A stretch of 8,793 bases of DNA from an uncultured archaeon (GCA_964510585.1 CAZECW010000165.1:1-8793), one strand, 5' to 3'; counted from the stretch's first letter, positions 1,554-8,793 are shown. Program-made: numbers and translations. Notes: generated by a model not told the origin, from the sequence alone.

Positions 1554-1967
1554 CTAGGTCAGAATCTTTAAACCAAACTCTGAAAGCCTTTCGAAATGCT
1601 TTAAATTCAAAGTATATAGAATTAGGTCTTTTGAGATTGCAATTGACGCGATCAGTAAATCTGCGTCTTCTATAGGTTCACCCCTTTCTTTTAACGTGGT
1701 GTAAAACTTGCAATAAGTCAATATGACATCGTTATCTATACCAACAATTTGAAAAATATCCTCTAGTAAGGTTTTTAATCTTCGTCTTCTCTCTTCAACT
1801 CTATAATACCTTAGGAACTCGATTAGGGAGATTGCGGAGAGGTAGCTATCTTCCAATAACTCGAGCTTTTTTGTTCTTGAGTATTCCACAAGAACGGAAG
1901 TATCAACAAGTACTCTCTCTGAACTTGAAGGACTTCCTGAAGCCTTCGGCTTCCTTTTTGAGTTCAT
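1554..1967 (-). CDS. vapC: VapC-type PIN-domain ribonuclease toxin (start uncertain)
   Basis: VLVDTSVLVE, LIEFLRY, PIEDADLLIASIA and YTLNLKHF PIN motifs; lies downstream of and overlaps a small antitoxin. The nearest in-frame start codon is ATG 1967 (others at 1979 and 2006). Confidence 0.88.
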   Translation of the reverse strand: MNSKRKPKASGSPSSSERVLVDTSVLVEYSRTKKLELLEDSYLSAISLIEFLRYYRVEERRRRLKTLLEDIFQIVGIDNDVILTYCKFYTTLKERGEPIEDADLLIASIAISKDLILYTLNLKHFERLSEFGLKILT

Positions 1968-2094
1968 CCCAATCGACATCCTCCACAAGCTTGTAGAATT
2001 CTTCAAACTTCTTCTTTTTCTTTAGGTAATTCCTGATTAATTCTTTAATCTCTTCCTCGGTAACGCCTTCGGGGACATCAATAACTATTTTCAT
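1903..2094 (-). CDS. vapB: Antitoxin (VapB-like), 63 aa MKIVIDVPEGVTEEEIKELIRNYL...
   Basis: Small charged protein directly upstream of and overlapping the PIN gene; N-terminal beta-strand plus helix pattern; SD-like GAGTGTGA before ATG 2094. Confidence 0.75.
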   Translation of the reverse strand: MKIVIDVPEGVTEEEIKELIRNYLKKKKKFEEFYKLVEDVDWDELKKEAEGFRKSFKFRESTC

Positions 2095-2526: not shown

Positions 2527-3035
2527 TAATACTGTTGAAAAATTTCTCTGTTTTGTAGAGGTGGGGTGGTTTAGATTGTGGATGAATGGTTGGTGTTTGA
2601 GTAAGGGCTAGGGAGAAATCTGTTTGTATAGGTCACCTGAGTTTCTTCATTGCCTGCTTTGAATTATCTTCTTTGAGTGCGTTTATTAGTTTTTCTGGAA
2701 GTTTTTCCAATTTTCTACAAATTCTTAACATGGTTTGCTGGAACAGGTATAATGGGGTATTCCCTCCCTGGTTTCACCGAGGTAGAACCCTTCGAGGTTT
2801 TTCTCTTATTTGCTTGGCAGATATTCCCCCCCATCACACTTTAGCATCATTTTTACCACAATTAGTTGTTTAGTGGTAAAATAAAATTTTTCCACCAATC
2901 ATCTTCGGTGAAGTGAATTGTTTGATTTCACTATTTTTTGAGACTAATCGGGAAATTAGCTTTATTTGAGTCTCCTTCCAGAGGCGGAGGCGAGTTAATC
3001 TATGCCACCTGATAGCATATTTGGTTATTTTTATT

Positions 3036-3048
3036 TTTGTATTACAAA
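3036..3048. promoter_or_regulatory. Palindrome TTTGTA-T-TACAAA, candidate RHH autoregulatory operator
   Basis: Lies 20 nt upstream of the RHH/UPF0175 gene start. Confidence 0.35.
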
Positions 3049-3067
3049 TATTATAGTTGGTGATAGA

Positions 3068-3391
3068 ATGTCGGAGATTCCGCCCAAGAGGATGATTTCA
3101 ATAAGGTTGGATGAGAATCTTCATAAACAGATTCAACAGTATAGTAAAGAGAGGGGAGAGTCGAAAACAAGGGCGATGATTGAACTGATAAAGCTAGGGT
3201 TGGAAAAGTGGAGGATGGAGAAAGCTCTTGAGATGTACCGGAATAGAAAGGTTTCACTGTGGAAGGCTGCAAGCATAGCTAATGTTTCACTATGGGAGAT
3301 AATAGACAAAATCAAGGAGTACGGCATCTACATTGACTACACTGAAGACGAGTTAGCGGAAGACCTTAAAGCTCTGAGTGAGAAAAAATGA
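3068..3391 (+). CDS. UPF0175-family antitoxin with N-terminal ribbon-helix-helix domain (107 aa)
   Basis: MISIRLDENL RHH strand-helix; ALEMYRNRKVSLWKAASIANVSLWEIIDKI...YTEDELAEDL UPF0175 pattern; GGTGA SD before ATG 3068; ATGA overlap with a following PIN start. Confidence 0.88.
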   Translation: MSEIPPKRMISIRLDENLHKQIQQYSKERGESKTRAMIELIKLGLEKWRMEKALEMYRNRKVSLWKAASIANVSLWEIIDKIKEYGIYIDYTEDELAEDLKALSEKK

Positions 3392-4379: not shown

Positions 4380-4401
4380 ACCAAAAAAATAAAATTGGAA
4401 C

Positions 4402-4415
4402 TATTTAAACTTCTC
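4402..4415 (-). promoter_or_regulatory. BRE + TATA box of the AbrB-VapC operon (leaderless geometry)
   Basis: Minus strand GAGAAG-TTTAAATA; the first T of the TATA box is 30 nt from ATG 4379. Confidence 0.55.
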
Positions 4416-4426
4416 CAGATTAGTTT

Positions 4427-4592
4427 GAGACCTTGCTTTGATTATGTGGTTTGCCTTTTTCCAGGCAGTTTAGGGTAACCTGCGCCCCTGTCCTTATAGG
4501 CTCTAAATTTGGAAAAGAAACATTATGAGGCTTTTTTTGAGAACGCCAAACAACCACACAAGCACCCAGCCACATAATCAATACAAGGTCTC
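4427..4592. mobile_element. MITE 2 (166 bp) with GAGACCTTG termini
   Basis: 23-bp TIRs, 21/23 identical (4427-4449 / 4570-4592); flanked by a 9-bp near-duplication GATTAGTTT (4418-4426) / GATCAGTTT (4593-4601). Confidence 0.8.
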
Positions 4593-4648
4593 GATCAGTT
4601 TGGCGCAATGTTCCTCGTTAGTGAATTTTTGTAAAAAATGGGGGGTTA

Positions 4649-5012
4649 ATGAAAAAAATTTGTACGGGAGGGAGGTACCGTTATACCAAAAAGGTGATAA
4701 ACTGTATGACGCAAAACAACAGTACCTCCCACAGATTACGGCTTCATCCCTGTCGGTTCTCTGCCCAACATCATCCTACATGGAGAATACTCGCGAGAAG
4801 AAGAAATAAGGCTTGCGGCTGAAACCCTAGTTAAGAAGCTCAGCCTCCCAACCGGAGGAGACCTGCCACCAAGACTCTACCACATACTGACAACAACCTT
4901 CGGCGCCCCAGACGACCAGTCCAACATGCTAAAAGGCCTGGAGGAATCCCCCCAGGAGGTGAGAGATACAGGAGGGGCAATACTGTTCGAAAGATTTTTT
5001 TGGCCATTTTAG
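4649..5012 (+). pseudogene. Frameshifted hypothetical protein (~110-120 aa), family unrecognised
   Basis: LYGREVPLYQKGDKLYDAKQQYL joins, by restoring one C near 4730, a 100-codon open frame (4710-5012) PTDYGFIPVGSLPNIILHGEYSREEEIRLAAETLVKKL...ERFFWPF* that is absent from the ORF track because it lacks an early start codon. Confidence 0.45.
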
Positions 5013-5127
5013 TGAAGGAAAATTTTGTGATTTGTGACTGTTTTTGATGAGAAAACCGAGTTAAAGTACGCAAACAGGCCTCCAGACACGCCCACTTAGC
5101 CCCCTCAACTCAATCTTTCGAACAGCA

Positions 5128-5373
5128 TTGGAGTTCAGGGCAGGAGATTGCGTAGGGGGAGTCCTCATCTTCCGCAGCTTTAGGGAGGGGGAAAGGTACA
5201 GAATCGAGTACAATACCCGCGGAGTCGCCACAACCCGGAAAATTAAGTTTCTCAAAATCCACAGATTCGGCAGAAGACGTATGGAACAGTACGTTGAAGC
5301 CTACTGCTACCTGAGGAAGAGGAAGCGAACCTTCAGGCTAGACCGCATAACCTTAATCACTCCCATTCACTAA
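5128..5373 (+). CDS. Stand-alone WYL-domain protein (true start uncertain; 5' end probably lesioned)
   Basis: YRIEYNTRGVATTRKI...QYVEAYCYLRKRKRTFRLDRI is the WYL signature. The frame is open from 5065. Upstream candidates are ATG 5047 (with in-frame TAA 5062) or GTG 5034 (with a frameshift near 5094). Confidence 0.8.
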   Translation: MEFRAGDCVGGVLIFRSFREGERYRIEYNTRGVATTRKIKFLKIHRFGRRRMEQYVEAYCYLRKRKRTFRLDRITLITPIH

Positions 5374-5566
5374 CGAGGAACATAGTGTCTGCGCCGCCCC
5401 ACAAAAAATTTTTAAATAATTGTTACGTGTACTTTCATATACTACTGATAAAGCACGTGAGGGTGAAAATTCGAAAAATAGTTGTTCTCATCCATCTTTC
5501 TTTGAGCATCCGGATAGATCGGAAGGGAGGCGTGGCCCCCTAAAACCGTGGAGCCGCGCTCTTCTT

Positions 5567-5626: not shown

Positions 5627-7837
5627 GTGAAATGCATTATGAAAAATAAAACCCTAAGAGTGACAGTAGTTTTAACAGCCTTGCTCCTTACAGCTTTTGC
5701 GGTTGCCACAATTCAGAGCCAAAACCAACAGAACCAAAACATAGTCCCATTCATCAACCTATATCTTCAGGGCGCCTCAAGCACCAACACAGTCACTCAA
5801 CCAAAATTGGATATCGGGTCGGACTACGAATTCAGCGGAGATATCTATGAAGCGATAGTTGTGACGGCGGACAACATAGTAATAGATGGAAAAGGATACT
5901 CCCTAATAGGATCCGGATCCGGTTCTGGCCCCGGCTTCACCCTAGATGGCAGGCAAAACGTAACCATAAGAAACGTTAATGTCAAAGGTTGGGATATCGG
6001 CTTTTACCTAGTTTCTAGCAGTAATAATAATCTTTCTGGTAACAATGCCACAAACAACGGCCAATACGGCTTCTACCTAGAGTCTAGCGGTAATAATACT
6101 CTTTCTGGTAACATTGCCACAGACAGCACTGAGGTCTTATATGGTTTCGGCTTCTACCTAAATTCTAGCAGTAATAATATTCTTTCTGGTAACATTGCCA
6201 CAGACAACAACCATGGCTTCTGGTTAAATTCTAGCAGTAATAATAATATTCTTTCTGGTAATACTGCCGCAAACAACAGCCAAGTCGGCTTCTGGTTGAA
6301 TTCTACCAGTAATAATACTCTTTCTGGCAACAATGCCACAAAGAACGACCGATGCAATTTTGTCATAGGGAGTAGCAGTAATAATACTCTTTCCGGGAAC
6401 ACTGCCACAAACAGCACTGCGCCCGGATTTGGTAATGGCTTCCTTCTAGTTTCTAGCAGTAATAATACTCTTTCTGGTAACACTGCCACAGACAACAACC
6501 ATGGCTTCTGGTTGCTGGGCAGCAGTAATAATACTCTTTCTGGTAATACTGCCACAAACAACGGTCAAGCCTTCTACGTAGCGTCTAGCAGTACAGAGTT
6601 TAGCAGGAATAATACTTTTTCGGGTAACATTGCCACAGATAACACCTTTGGCTTCCTAATTACTTATTTAAGCGATAATAATACTTTTTCTGGTAACACT
6701 GTCGCAAACAATACCGAATATGGTTTCTTCTTGGAGCATATTTTGTACAGTAATCTTACAGGTAACACTGCCATAAACAACGGCCAATACGGCTTCTGCC
6801 TAAATTCTAGTAGTAGTAATAATATTCTTTCGGGCAACATTGCCACGAACAACAACTACGGCTTCTACCTAAATTCTAGCAGTAATAATAATATTCTCTC
6901 TGGTAATACTGCCGCAAACAACACCGAATATGGTTTCTACCTATATTCTAGTTCGTATAATAATCTTACGGGTAACACGGCAAACAGTAACGGCAACATG
7001 GGCTTCGCTCTATACTCCGGCTCGAACAACAATAATCTTACAGATAACGATGCCATAGGCAACAACAACTACGGTTTCTACCTGCATTCTAGTTCGTACA
7101 ATAATCTTACGGGTAACAATGCCACAGGCAGCGCCCAAGCTGGCTTCGGCCAAGTTTCTAGTAGTAATAATACTCTTTCTGGTAACGCTGCTACAAACAA
7201 CTACTATGGCTTCAGCCTATCGGGTAGCAACAATAATAACCTTACGAATAACGCTGCTACAAACAACAACTATGGCTTCTTCCTGTACACCTCCCATAAT
7301 AACACTTTGCATTTTGACATAGCTATTAATTCTACAGTCCAAGCATACTACACGGGGTCAAGTACAGGTAATGATTTCACGGGAAGTGTTGAGGCGAACT
7401 ATCTTCGAATAATGGTTCTGGGCGCATTTGGTGGCGCTTTACAGGGTGCGAATGTTCTGGTTGAGGTCGACGGGAATATTGTTTACGCCTCTCCAGGCTT
7501 CAATGGAAGCGATCCCACCACTGATGAAAGTGGGTTAACCCCCTGGATAATCGTTCCATATAAAACCTGCGTGGATGGAACAAACTGGGTGGAGAACACC
7601 ACAAAAGTTACTGTGAAATACGCATGGTTAACTTTCACTAATAACTCCAGAACAGTTGATATGAGTAGTAGCCATACTGAAACATTCCAAGCGGAAGTGA
7701 TGACGCTTCTTGGTCTTCTGTTGGCTATAGCTGGTCTGCAGGGTGGTGTTAATCCCATGGTTTACATTGTAGCTGTCGTTGCTGCAATCGGTGCGGTGGC
7801 TTCGGCTCTGTTTTACTATTTCCGATTCCGAAGGTGA
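5627..7837 (+). CDS. Secreted, membrane-anchored parallel beta-helix repeat (NosD/CASH-like) surface glycoprotein
   Basis: Basic plus hydrophobic signal peptide; about 19 GFxLxSSxNNxLSGNxA repeats; Ig-like stalk; C-terminal TM helix ending in RFRR; many N-x-S/T sequons. Start is GTG 5627 (GAGGA SD) or ATG 5639. Confidence 0.92.
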   Translation: MKCIMKNKTLRVTVVLTALLLTAFAVATIQSQNQQNQNIVPFINLYLQGASSTNTVTQPKLDIGSDYEFSGDIYEAIVVTADNIVIDGKGYSLIGSGSGSGPGFTLDGRQNVTIRNVNVKGWDIGFYLVSSSNNNLSGNNATNNGQYGFYLESSGNNTLSGNIATDSTEVLYGFGFYLNSSSNNILSGNIATDNNHGFWLNSSSNNNILSGNTAANNSQVGFWLNSTSNNTLSGNNATKNDRCNFVIGSSSNNTLSGNTATNSTAPGFGNGFLLVSSSNNTLSGNTATDNNHGFWLLGSSNNTLSGNTATNNGQAFYVASSSTEFSRNNTFSGNIATDNTFGFLITYLSDNNTFSGNTVANNTEYGFFLEHILYSNLTGNTAINNGQYGFCLNSSSSNNILSGNIATNNNYGFYLNSSSNNNILSGNTAANNTEYGFYLYSSSYNNLTGNTANSNGNMGFALYSGSNNNNLTDNDAIGNNNYGFYLHSSSYNNLTGNNATGSAQAGFGQVSSSNNTLSGNAATNNYYGFSLSGSNNNNLTNNAATNNNYGFFLYTSHNNTLHFDIAINSTVQAYYTGSSTGNDFTGSVEANYLRIMVLGAFGGALQGANVLVEVDGNIVYASPGFNGSDPTTDESGLTPWIIVPYKTCVDGTNWVENTTKVTVKYAWLTFTNNSRTVDMSSSHTETFQAEVMTLLGLLLAIAGLQGGVNPMVYIVAVVAAIGAVASALFYYFRFRR
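5999..7320 (+). repeat. Intragenic tandem repeats of 66-81 nt encoding beta-helix coils
   Basis: For example 6225-6278 vs 6870-6923 are 53/54 identical, and 6196-6225 vs 6484-6513 are 30/30 identical. Confidence 0.9.
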
Positions 7838-7900: not shown

Positions 7901-7957
7901 GTTTCTGCCTTTCTCTTCTCTCTTATTTTTTGTAGTTTTTATTGTTTTTTTTGTTTG
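7901..7957 (+). terminator. Pyrimidine/oligo-T tract, likely archaeal terminator
   Basis: Several T5-T8 runs 65-120 nt after the stop codon of the surface-protein gene. Confidence 0.45.
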
Positions 7958-8229
7958 CTATAAAAACATGTTTTCGTTCTTTGTCTAAGAAGCGCAGCTT
8001 ATGTACGTTTTTACCGTTGTGTTCTATTTTTAGAATTAGAGATAGTATAGGGGAAGCTGGAGGCAGTGGTTTGGAATTTTGTTTTATTTTTTGTGACGAT
8101 ATGAAAAACTTTTGTCCAAGTTGTGTTAGTGGAGGTGTGTATCGGCAAGCCCGCCAAAAAACATGACCCGTATGAGGCCGATTATGTGACTGGGCATGGG
8201 GTTTAAGCGGCTATCCAAGTGCCCCCGGG

Positions 8230-8625
8230 ATGAGGGCGAATAGATGCCGTAAAGGAGCCGACACACAGGAGGTAATCCTCCGTGATGTATATGGGGAAAA
8301 GAAAAAAGGAGGGGATGCAATTAACACCATTATTGATAGCTTAAGTTTGGAAGATTTGAAGGAATTCTTAAGAAGGGAGTTCAAAGAAGACCCTAAGCTA
8401 AAAATACGGCTTAAAATTTACTTCGCTGACAGGGTAGGAGGGAGAAGCATTGAGGATTATAGGAAGGAGATAAACCTGTTATGCGGGGGGACCGCTGGTG
8501 AGTACGAATTTACCAAGCATGGCGACGCAGAAGCTGACTTCACCCAAATTCAAGATTTGGCGGAACACCTTATCCAAAAGGGAAACTTGCGGGAAGCGGC
8601 GAAAATCTATCAAGCCTTATCCGAA
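8230..8625 (+). pseudogene. Truncated gene resembling the helical C-terminal part of archaeal SWIM zinc-finger proteins
   Basis: AINTIIDSLSLEDLKEFLRREF...SIEDYRKEINLL...ADFTQIQDLAEHLIQKGNLREAAKIYQALSE matches my recollection of that family (not searched). No SWIM CxC...CxH motif is present. The ORF tail 8626-8787 is read-through into an IS end. Confidence 0.55.
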
Positions 8626-8775
8626 TTGACACTCTCCGCGACTAAAGCCGGGAGATTCTTGCTTCTGGCTCATCGGGAGCCTTCGAAGCAATGGGTGTGC
8701 CATCACCCAGTTAACACGCCCTTCCCTCAAGGGAACGGCGTCTATGTTGGCACCCTCATGGGGGCTGCGTCTTGT
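8606..8775 (-). ncRNA. Putative TnpB omegaRNA (reRNA): ~150-nt scaffold plus flanking guide
   Basis: Contiguous hairpins at 8716-8741, 8693-8708, 8659-8691 and 8633-8655. The guide would be the 3' flank TTCGGATAAGGCTTGATAGA. Confidence 0.6.
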
Positions 8776-8793
8776 TTAGCCTCTTAAGCCCAA
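8626..8793 (-). mobile_element. Right end of an IS200/IS605-family (TnpB-type) element continuing beyond the window
   Basis: Minus strand GAAT-CTCCCGGC-TTTA-GTCG(C)GGAG-AGTG-TCAA, i.e. a GAAT guide tetranucleotide, a bulged subterminal hairpin and a terminal TCAA. It coincides with the loss of host-protein homology. Confidence 0.82.

Follow-up and report, generated by a model that had tools for sequence, protein, structure and literature searches.

The right end of the window (the whole stretch of DNA analyzed, 8,793 nucleotides, which is the complete contig C165 of a 3.8-Mb genome in 217 contigs) lies within a high-copy, protein-free repeat of a hot-spring Asgard (Jordarchaeia) archaeon. The last 168 bases, positions 8626 to 8793 on the minus strand, are the right-side piece of this repeat and, judged by sequence, are the right end of an approximately 279-bp IS200/IS605 PATE of the IS608 type. 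The best overall explanation, which we consider likely, is that this PATE right end would be moved by TnpA and would specify an omegaRNA serving a TnpB supplied in trans. The earlier note had described a TnpB-type locus; the copy belongs instead to a 279-bp protein-free element. The kind is one already described, as PATEs with omegaRNAs are present in the literature, and the site points to no new mechanism.

A BLAST search of the genome with the repeat returned 120 hits, and the element is present in about 70 copies. These include 29 complete internal copies of 275 to 283 bp that are 90 to 98% identical (mostly 95 to 98%), together with 39 right-side and 51 left-side pieces at contig ends. The complete copies are too short for a transposase or nuclease gene and thus match the definition of PATEs established in Haloquadratum walsbyi, namely, protein-free derivatives of IS200/IS605 (PMC3119063). 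Over its full 168 nt, the window copy shows 99.4% identity to the PATE consensus, including positions 8749 to 8793, which are PATE specific in that they are not common to the full-length elements of the same genome. The copy ends at 168 nt with the contig, and its assigned length of 275 to 283 bp follows from the 99.4% family identity. Most contigs break off about 140 nt into the repeat, which looks like the k-1 overlap of a k=141 assembly; the PATE repeat is a main reason for the fragmentation of the assembly into 217 contigs. In three hot-spring DNA runs, the junction at 8625/8626 was confirmed and the repeat was found at high depth. Neither joints nor the empty-site allele were seen in these runs or in a single RNA run.

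The ends of the element are uniform across the genome. TTAC precedes 65 of 65 left ends, and 66 of 66 right ends finish with AGTGTCAA. The same hairpin and TCAA recur in many other copies, and the 66 right flanks are all different. These 66 insertion sites, compared as sequences, testify to past movement of the element and to no more than that. No terminal inverted repeats were found at the PATE ends, and there is no target-site duplication, with no matching tetranucleotide at the right flanks. We treated the initial TTAC of the consensus as the retained target tetranucleotide, with the element proper starting after it. In the element sense (slashes mark the element boundary), the left end reads TTAC/AAAACCTTGGCGAGAAAG-CCCCCGAC-TTTA-GTCG-t-GGGG... 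and the right-end consensus reads ...GAAT-CTCCCGAC-TTTA-GTCG-c-GGAG-AGTG-TCAA/. Complete copies thus carry subterminal imperfect palindromes at both ends, nearly identical to each other, the left hairpin having AAAG at its foot and the right one GAAT; the window holds the right palindrome only. In the PATE, a left end of about 90 nt is joined to some 190 nt of right-side sequence. The left part matches the left end of a full-length element of the same genome, IS-A, including a TATA-like region upstream of tnpA, and no other part of the PATE varies as much among copies as the TATA-like box.

The assignment to an IS608-type right end, already made in the earlier note, agrees with all of these features: the element shares with IS608 the TTAC target, the TCAA end, AAAG and GAAT at the feet of the hairpins, imperfect palindromes in which one base is extrahelical, and a transposase of the Y1 HUH type. 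GAAT is the right guide, G_R, of IS608. The left hairpin foot lies 18 nt from the cleavage point at TTAC here, against 19 nt in IS608, and the corresponding right spacing is 8 nt compared with 10 nt. Further differences from IS608 are the archaeal host, a palindrome of unrelated sequence, and the lack of genes in the window copy. For IS608 of Helicobacter pylori itself, the TTAC target, right cleavage at TCAA, and AAAG (G_L) at the left-hairpin foot have been reported (PMC3201880).

The element is inserted on the minus strand, 3' of TTAC, inside the remnant of a SWIM zinc-finger/TPR gene. This remnant (8293 to 8625, plus strand) corresponds to approximately residues 94 to 191 of a 387-amino-acid orthologue carrying the Pfam SWIM domain (PF04434), and its frame has 67 to 70% amino-acid identity to the orthologues in two genomes of the same genus. 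Homology stops exactly at 8625 (...AKIYQALSE) and does not continue through 8626 to 8787. The boundary at 8625/8626 is therefore doubly marked, by the start of the genome-wide repeat and by the end of orthologue homology. Both congeners have uninterrupted DNA at this point, ...CTATCCGAA/GTAATAGCCGAAAAC..., encoding ...SE/VIAEN; their empty site can be written CCGAA/GTAATAGCC, and in both, GTAA (TTAC on the element strand) lies exactly at the junction. The continuation SE-V-I, which the earlier note had proposed for the ancestral protein, is encoded in precisely this form by the two congeners. Its proposal of an interrupted SWIM-like gene holds for the abrupt end of homology at 8625, but what is present is only a fragment. 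The N-terminal SWIM part was found neither upstream of the remnant nor elsewhere in the assembly, and the C-terminal half was missing from the assembly when blastn and tblastn were run with the full protein and the downstream sequence of the congeners and when the flanks of all 145 candidate left ends were inspected. Synteny is not conserved, with the congener's neighbor genes located on C52 and C44 here. A complete PATE copy on C21 was considered as a second empty site and was uninformative because the sequences on either side of it lie on separate contigs in relatives.

As read on the minus strand, all the motifs listed in the earlier note (stacked hairpins, GAAT, a bulged stem, and TCAA ending at 8626) are present: positions 8626 to 8747 form four consecutive hairpins, counting the bulged one, with GAAT before the bulged hairpin and AGTG-TCAA after it. 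The order begins with AACATAG from 8748 downwards, followed by hairpin A (8716 to 8741; ACGCC-g-TTCCC/GGGAA-g-GGCGT, with an internal G/G mismatch), GTTAAC, hairpin B (8692 to 8709; (T)GGGTG/CACCC(A)), and hairpin C (8659 to 8691; TTGCTTC..GGCTC/GAGCC..GAAGCAA), the three hairpins being those obtained with RNAfold. GAAT (8655 to 8658) forms the 5' foot of the right-end hairpin, in the position of the IS608 G_R guide. The subterminal imperfect palindrome, CTCCCGGC-TTTA-GTCG-c-GGAG (8634 to 8654), has an extrahelical C and one copy-specific G-U pair, and it is followed by AGTG (8630 to 8633) and by TCAA (8626 to 8629). The last of these coincides with the repeat boundary and represents the right-end cleavage site, C_R, and the last bases of the element, as does TCAA in IS608 (PMC3201880). 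The 20 nt past TCAA, TTCGGATAAGGCTTGATAGA (8606 to 8625, minus strand), are host-gene sequence, in agreement with the earlier reading. RNAfold gives the same four-hairpin fold on the minus strand at -60.2 kcal/mol (z -5.07; none of 200 shuffles folded as well), compared with -51.4 kcal/mol (z -3.69) on the plus strand. The G-U pair had been taken as a strand-specific sign and was rejected as such: it reflects a single A-to-G change relative to the family consensus, CTCCCGAC, found in the window copy only, and a change private to one copy is by itself without strand information.

Comparison across archaea indicates that this scaffold truly belongs to a TnpB omegaRNA-type family, a conclusion drawn from a covariance-model match and from compensatory changes. 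When the complete set of right ends was aligned with MAFFT, hairpins A and C of different subfamilies were not brought into register, and a covariance model was therefore used instead. The seed of this model, R1, was made up of eight right ends from other archaea, each linked to tnpB, with PATEs left out, and its structure, from RNAalifold, consists of hairpins A, B, and C plus the right-end hairpin. R1 matches the window at 8626 to 8747 on the minus strand as a complete tnpB-3'/right-end scaffold (81.1 bits, E ~4e-18, model positions 1 to 165), with the long interior of hairpin C replaced by 19 nt. The same model finds 83 scaffolds in the genome of the window and 53 sites in the collected loci, each of the latter overlapping the end of a TnpB match. 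The right 122 nt of the PATE are thus part of a structure family whose counterparts in full-length relatives overlap both the right end and the 3' end of tnpB. A search with RNA models had been proposed in the earlier note; R1 yields this match, whereas Rfam gave none, either for the window at gathering scores or for the complete PATE and two tnpB right ends at E values up to 1.

Among 48 distinct aligned sequences, 91.2% of cells are paired, compared with 72.5% after shuffling and about 48% when partners are slid, and compensatory changes on both sides occur in 37 of 45 pairs. The observed values, not attained in any of 500 shuffles, are somewhat inflated because the alignment was fitted to the model. 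The closing helix of hairpin C shows compensatory changes in all 13 of its pairs, and the right-end hairpin (helix 8) covaries as well. The omegaRNA-type structure suggested in the earlier note is accordingly conserved and covarying. The stem at the place of hairpin A is built from different sequences in IS-A, in a second full-length element (IS-B), and in their relatives, and inspection by eye shows stems in matching positions throughout IS-A, IS-B, and the PATE despite their divergent sequences. Among related right ends, the majority keep GAAT; those of the Wukong/Hodarch type carry GAAC or AGAA instead. The loop of hairpin B, AUGGCA, can pair with UGUCA at 8627 to 8631 and is a candidate for a pseudoknot beside the guide. 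Loop:tail variants occur in a few sequences (UGGCA:UGUCA, UGACA:UGUCA, UGGCA:UGCCA, GGCG:ACGUC, and GACC:GGUC), with changes that are compensatory or resolve a wobble and are compatible with a pseudoknot, and most sequences are invariant there.

Two observations from PATEs themselves suggest that hairpins A to C have been kept for a reason. Independent, shorter PATEs in a congener consist of about 95 nt of left end joined directly to the same 111- to 114-nt scaffold. Among the PATE copies of the window's genome, substitutions per site-copy amount to 0.54% in stems, 1.84% in the unpaired scaffold, and 2.3% in the upstream segment, a difference that is a hint and not a test, since the copies share ancestry. 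In IS608, TnpA requires only about 45 nt of the right end, from G_R to C_R (PMC3201880), and by analogy, hairpins A to C would not be expected to serve transposition.

The proteins that could act on the PATE in trans are encoded elsewhere in the genome. IS-A is represented on C169, C7, and C162 by TTAC, a left end 92 to 95% identical to that of the PATE, tnpA, and the start of tnpB, and there are about ten IS-A-type left ends in total. The adjoining tnpA matches PF01797, and its product (P0002) has both the HUH motif (PDHLHLF, with HLH) and the catalytic Y in SYLFST intact. The 3' end of IS-A tnpB with the right end is found on C8 and at the ends of C54, C152, and C45, and this right end is about 80% identical to that of the PATE over the last 97 nt. 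Fragments of IS-A tnpB lie on C169, C7, and C8, and the middle of the gene is missing from the assembly. IS-B is complete on C81 (C81:5075-6787), with a decayed tnpA that has lost the HUH motif and an intact tnpB of 424 amino acids. Its TnpB (P0001) matches PF01385 and PF07282 and has the RuvC-I D, the RuvC-III D, and the zinc finger. A check of the RuvC D-E-D residues, as the earlier note advised, finds both Asp residues and the zinc finger in both TnpB types, but a Gly at the RuvC-II Glu position of each (IVLGRL and IVVGNL). The label of a catalytically dead TnpB was dropped because this replacement is typical of large, partly archaeal clades in which a relocated glutamate is predicted to keep activity (PMC10691335). 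The PATE scaffold differs from those of both resident elements, being about 80% identical to that of IS-A and without the long insert of IS-B, so that its compatibility with a resident TnpB is an assumption.

Several further features of these elements were observed. In the IS-B copy on C81, the decayed tnpA (HUH to GYIQLF) shares an open frame with the intact tnpB, giving a stop-to-stop frame of 571 codons (L014), and the left-end palindrome, CCTACGG/CCGTGGG, differs from the right-end palindrome. In the TnpB family that includes L014, L043, and L068 to L077, the frame continues through the entire scaffold and on through the right-end hairpin (...SRGECQ); with the stop codon at or beyond the transposon end, the last residues can vary with the insertion site. 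Relatives of the C81 TnpB were collected from 185,579 species genomes. Proteins 70 to 83% identical to it occur in metagenome-assembled genomes of Thermoproteota, Bathyarchaeia, Nitrososphaeria, and Methanomethylicia (L068 to L077, L107, and L111), and more distant relatives occur in several Asgard lineages, a distribution that points to the IS having spread recently from one archaeal phylum to another in hot environments. Full-length 165-nt scaffolds of the IS-B type are also found outside tnpB matches (C107:7069-7233, C21:234-398, C58:28394-28557, C61:1744-1907, and C32:13043-13211) and may represent a second PATE family.

For the window copy, the predicted guide is the 16 to 20 nt of host DNA directly 3' of the right end, UUCGGAUAAGGCUUGAUAGA, running from 8625 down to 8606 on the minus strand, by analogy with the omegaRNAs of TnpB (PMC10097598). 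The predicted TAM is TTAC, as the SE-V-I continuation in the two congeners implies. The TNAC-like TAM of the earlier note is supported by TTAC at the congener junction and at 65 of 65 left ends, with cleavage itself being inferred. The predicted target of the guide is the donor joint recreated by excision, 5'-TTAC/TTCGGATAAGG...; the intact genes of the congeners differ from the guide by one mismatch (G004) and by two (G001). In an off-target search, no target consisting of TTAC plus the guide was found elsewhere in the genome. An archaeal TnpB with a definable guide and TAM had been singled out as the point of interest, but this site is one of about 66 such sites in the genome.

In the mechanism that we favor, the Y1 TnpA of full-length IS-A copies would move the PATE by single-strand peel-and-paste. 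Transcription would start from the former tnpA promoter region in the left part and run through the scaffold into the flank, and the product would be an omegaRNA with the guide UUCGGAUAAGGCUUGAUAGA. After excision, a TnpB acting in trans would use this omegaRNA to cut the TTAC-flanked empty site, and recombination would restore the copy. A stronger version, which we regard as possible but on balance doubtful, holds that the roughly 70 PATEs are a working library of self-promoted omegaRNAs that use the retained tnpA promoter and load a TnpB with the rearranged active site, each defending its own site. If that were true, homing by TnpB, not TnpA alone, would explain the burst of the element in an Asgard archaeon, and the lower stem polymorphism would be the footprint of selection.

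The most serious competitor, which we think unlikely, is that hairpins A to C are inert leftovers of the tnpB 3' end, retained simply because the founding deletion stopped there, with TnpA acting through the terminal 45 nt or so and no guide RNA made or used. The one metatranscriptome offers no direct RNA evidence against it: two low-depth contigs derive from other copies, with DNA carry-over possible and neither ends nor strand readable. An inert relic would also sit well with the polymorphic candidate promoter and with a scaffold unlike those of both resident TnpB elements, and because the copies are young, at 95 to 98% identity, conservation of the scaffold alone is weak evidence. What speaks against an inert relic is that stems are 3 to 4 times less polymorphic than unpaired or upstream positions, that the independently derived congener PATEs retain the scaffold and little else, and that R1 recognizes the scaffold over its entire length as belonging to a covarying family.

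Two other readings concern the identity of the window end. That it belongs to a full-length IS with tnpB just past 8793 is very improbable, although the contig stops inside the element, so that the continuation is unseen directly, and a remnant frame (8617 to 8775; ...EGRVNWVMAHPL...) resembles TnpB C-termini. The internal segment from 8748 to 8793 (minus strand), within which the contig stops, is, from this resemblance, a decayed relic of the RuvC-III/C-terminal coding region of tnpB. The window copy, this segment included, matches the PATE consensus at 99.4% identity, and all 29 copies that continue past this PATE-specific segment reach a left end about 110 bp farther on. Moreover, no contig joins a right end of the window type to tnpB, the right ends of the full-length elements are clearly different, and contigs from another sample run on past 8781 to 8783 as PATE sequence. 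The identity to the consensus therefore leads us to expect that the PATE continues for about 110 bp past 8793 and includes a non-autonomous left end, terminating in ...CCAAGGTTTTGTAA on the plus strand. Of the continuations envisaged in the earlier note (tnpB, a dead derivative, or a non-autonomous left end), the last is thus favored, and tnpB is not. Still less credible, to the point of being negligible, is that the hairpins are a chance structure or the host gene's own coding or regulatory sequence. A plus-strand open frame of 185 codons does span 8230 to 8787 and runs off the contig end, but it is an artifact that arises because the frame of the host gene reads on into the PATE: homology to the host gene ends at 8625, the rest of the frame is a repeat present about 70 times, and the fold has a z-score of about -5.

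The favored reading, an IS608-type PATE with an omegaRNA-type scaffold, can be compared with two known systems. Like the PATEs described previously, the element is too short for a protein, has near-terminal palindromes, lacks inverted repeats and target duplication, forms a homogeneous high-copy family, and apparently originated as a full element minus its core. PATE-like elements encoding omegaRNAs used in trans are known from Geobacillus stearothermophilus (PMC10055086), and the present element resembles them in its omegaRNA-type scaffold, which would need TnpB in trans. It differs from known PATEs in its Jordarchaeia host, in its left end of about 90 nt with a presumed tnpA promoter, and in its abundance of about 70 copies per 3.8 Mb. 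The TnpB omegaRNA of ISDra2 from Deinococcus radiodurans has a scaffold, a pseudoknot, and a guide taken from the flank (PMC10097598). As in ISDra2, the RNA region covers the tnpB 3' end and the right end, with four stems and a scaffold of about 116 to 123 nt; a pseudoknot, here a candidate, engages the nucleotides that immediately precede the guide; and the guide and TAM, both predicted here, are supplied by the flank and by the transposon's target motif. However, there is no detectable sequence similarity to ISDra2, the predicted TAM is TTAC rather than TTGAT, the partner in the candidate pseudoknot is a hairpin loop, and the associated TnpBs have Gly at the RuvC-II Glu position.

The locus provides a cleanly defined set of scaffold, predicted guide, and predicted TAM from a thermophilic Asgard archaeon for which the ancestral empty site is kept in sister species. 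The approximately 66 putative natural guides on one scaffold offer material with which to test a trans-acting TnpB with a Gly-substituted RuvC-II.

Other features of the window were noted. The contig also starts inside a repeat: positions 1 to 141 are 100% identical to C80:30198-30338 and 95 to 96% identical to the ends of C73 and C104, an overlap of about 140 nt as at other repeat-bounded contig ends. Several segments within 4401 to 5390 (4401 to 4592, 4608 to 4947, and 5184 to 5390) are repeated on many contigs at 76 to 96% identity, often at contig ends, and probably represent a further family of mobile elements. At 7943 to 8013, just upstream of the SWIM-gene remnant, lies a short repeat (about 60 to 70 bp) with at least 14 copies at 92 to 100% identity on C140, C156, C20, C54, C196, C194, and other contigs. 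A PIN-domain protein (1554 to 2006, minus strand) and a UPF0175-family protein (3002 to 3391, plus strand) are typical toxin-antitoxin components and are nonadjacent in the window. Positions 5627 to 7837 (plus strand) encode a 736-amino-acid NosD/right-handed beta-helix protein (PF05048 and PF13229) with long Asn-rich repeats of the SGNTATNN type, a signal-like segment at the N terminus, and a hydrophobic segment at the C terminus.
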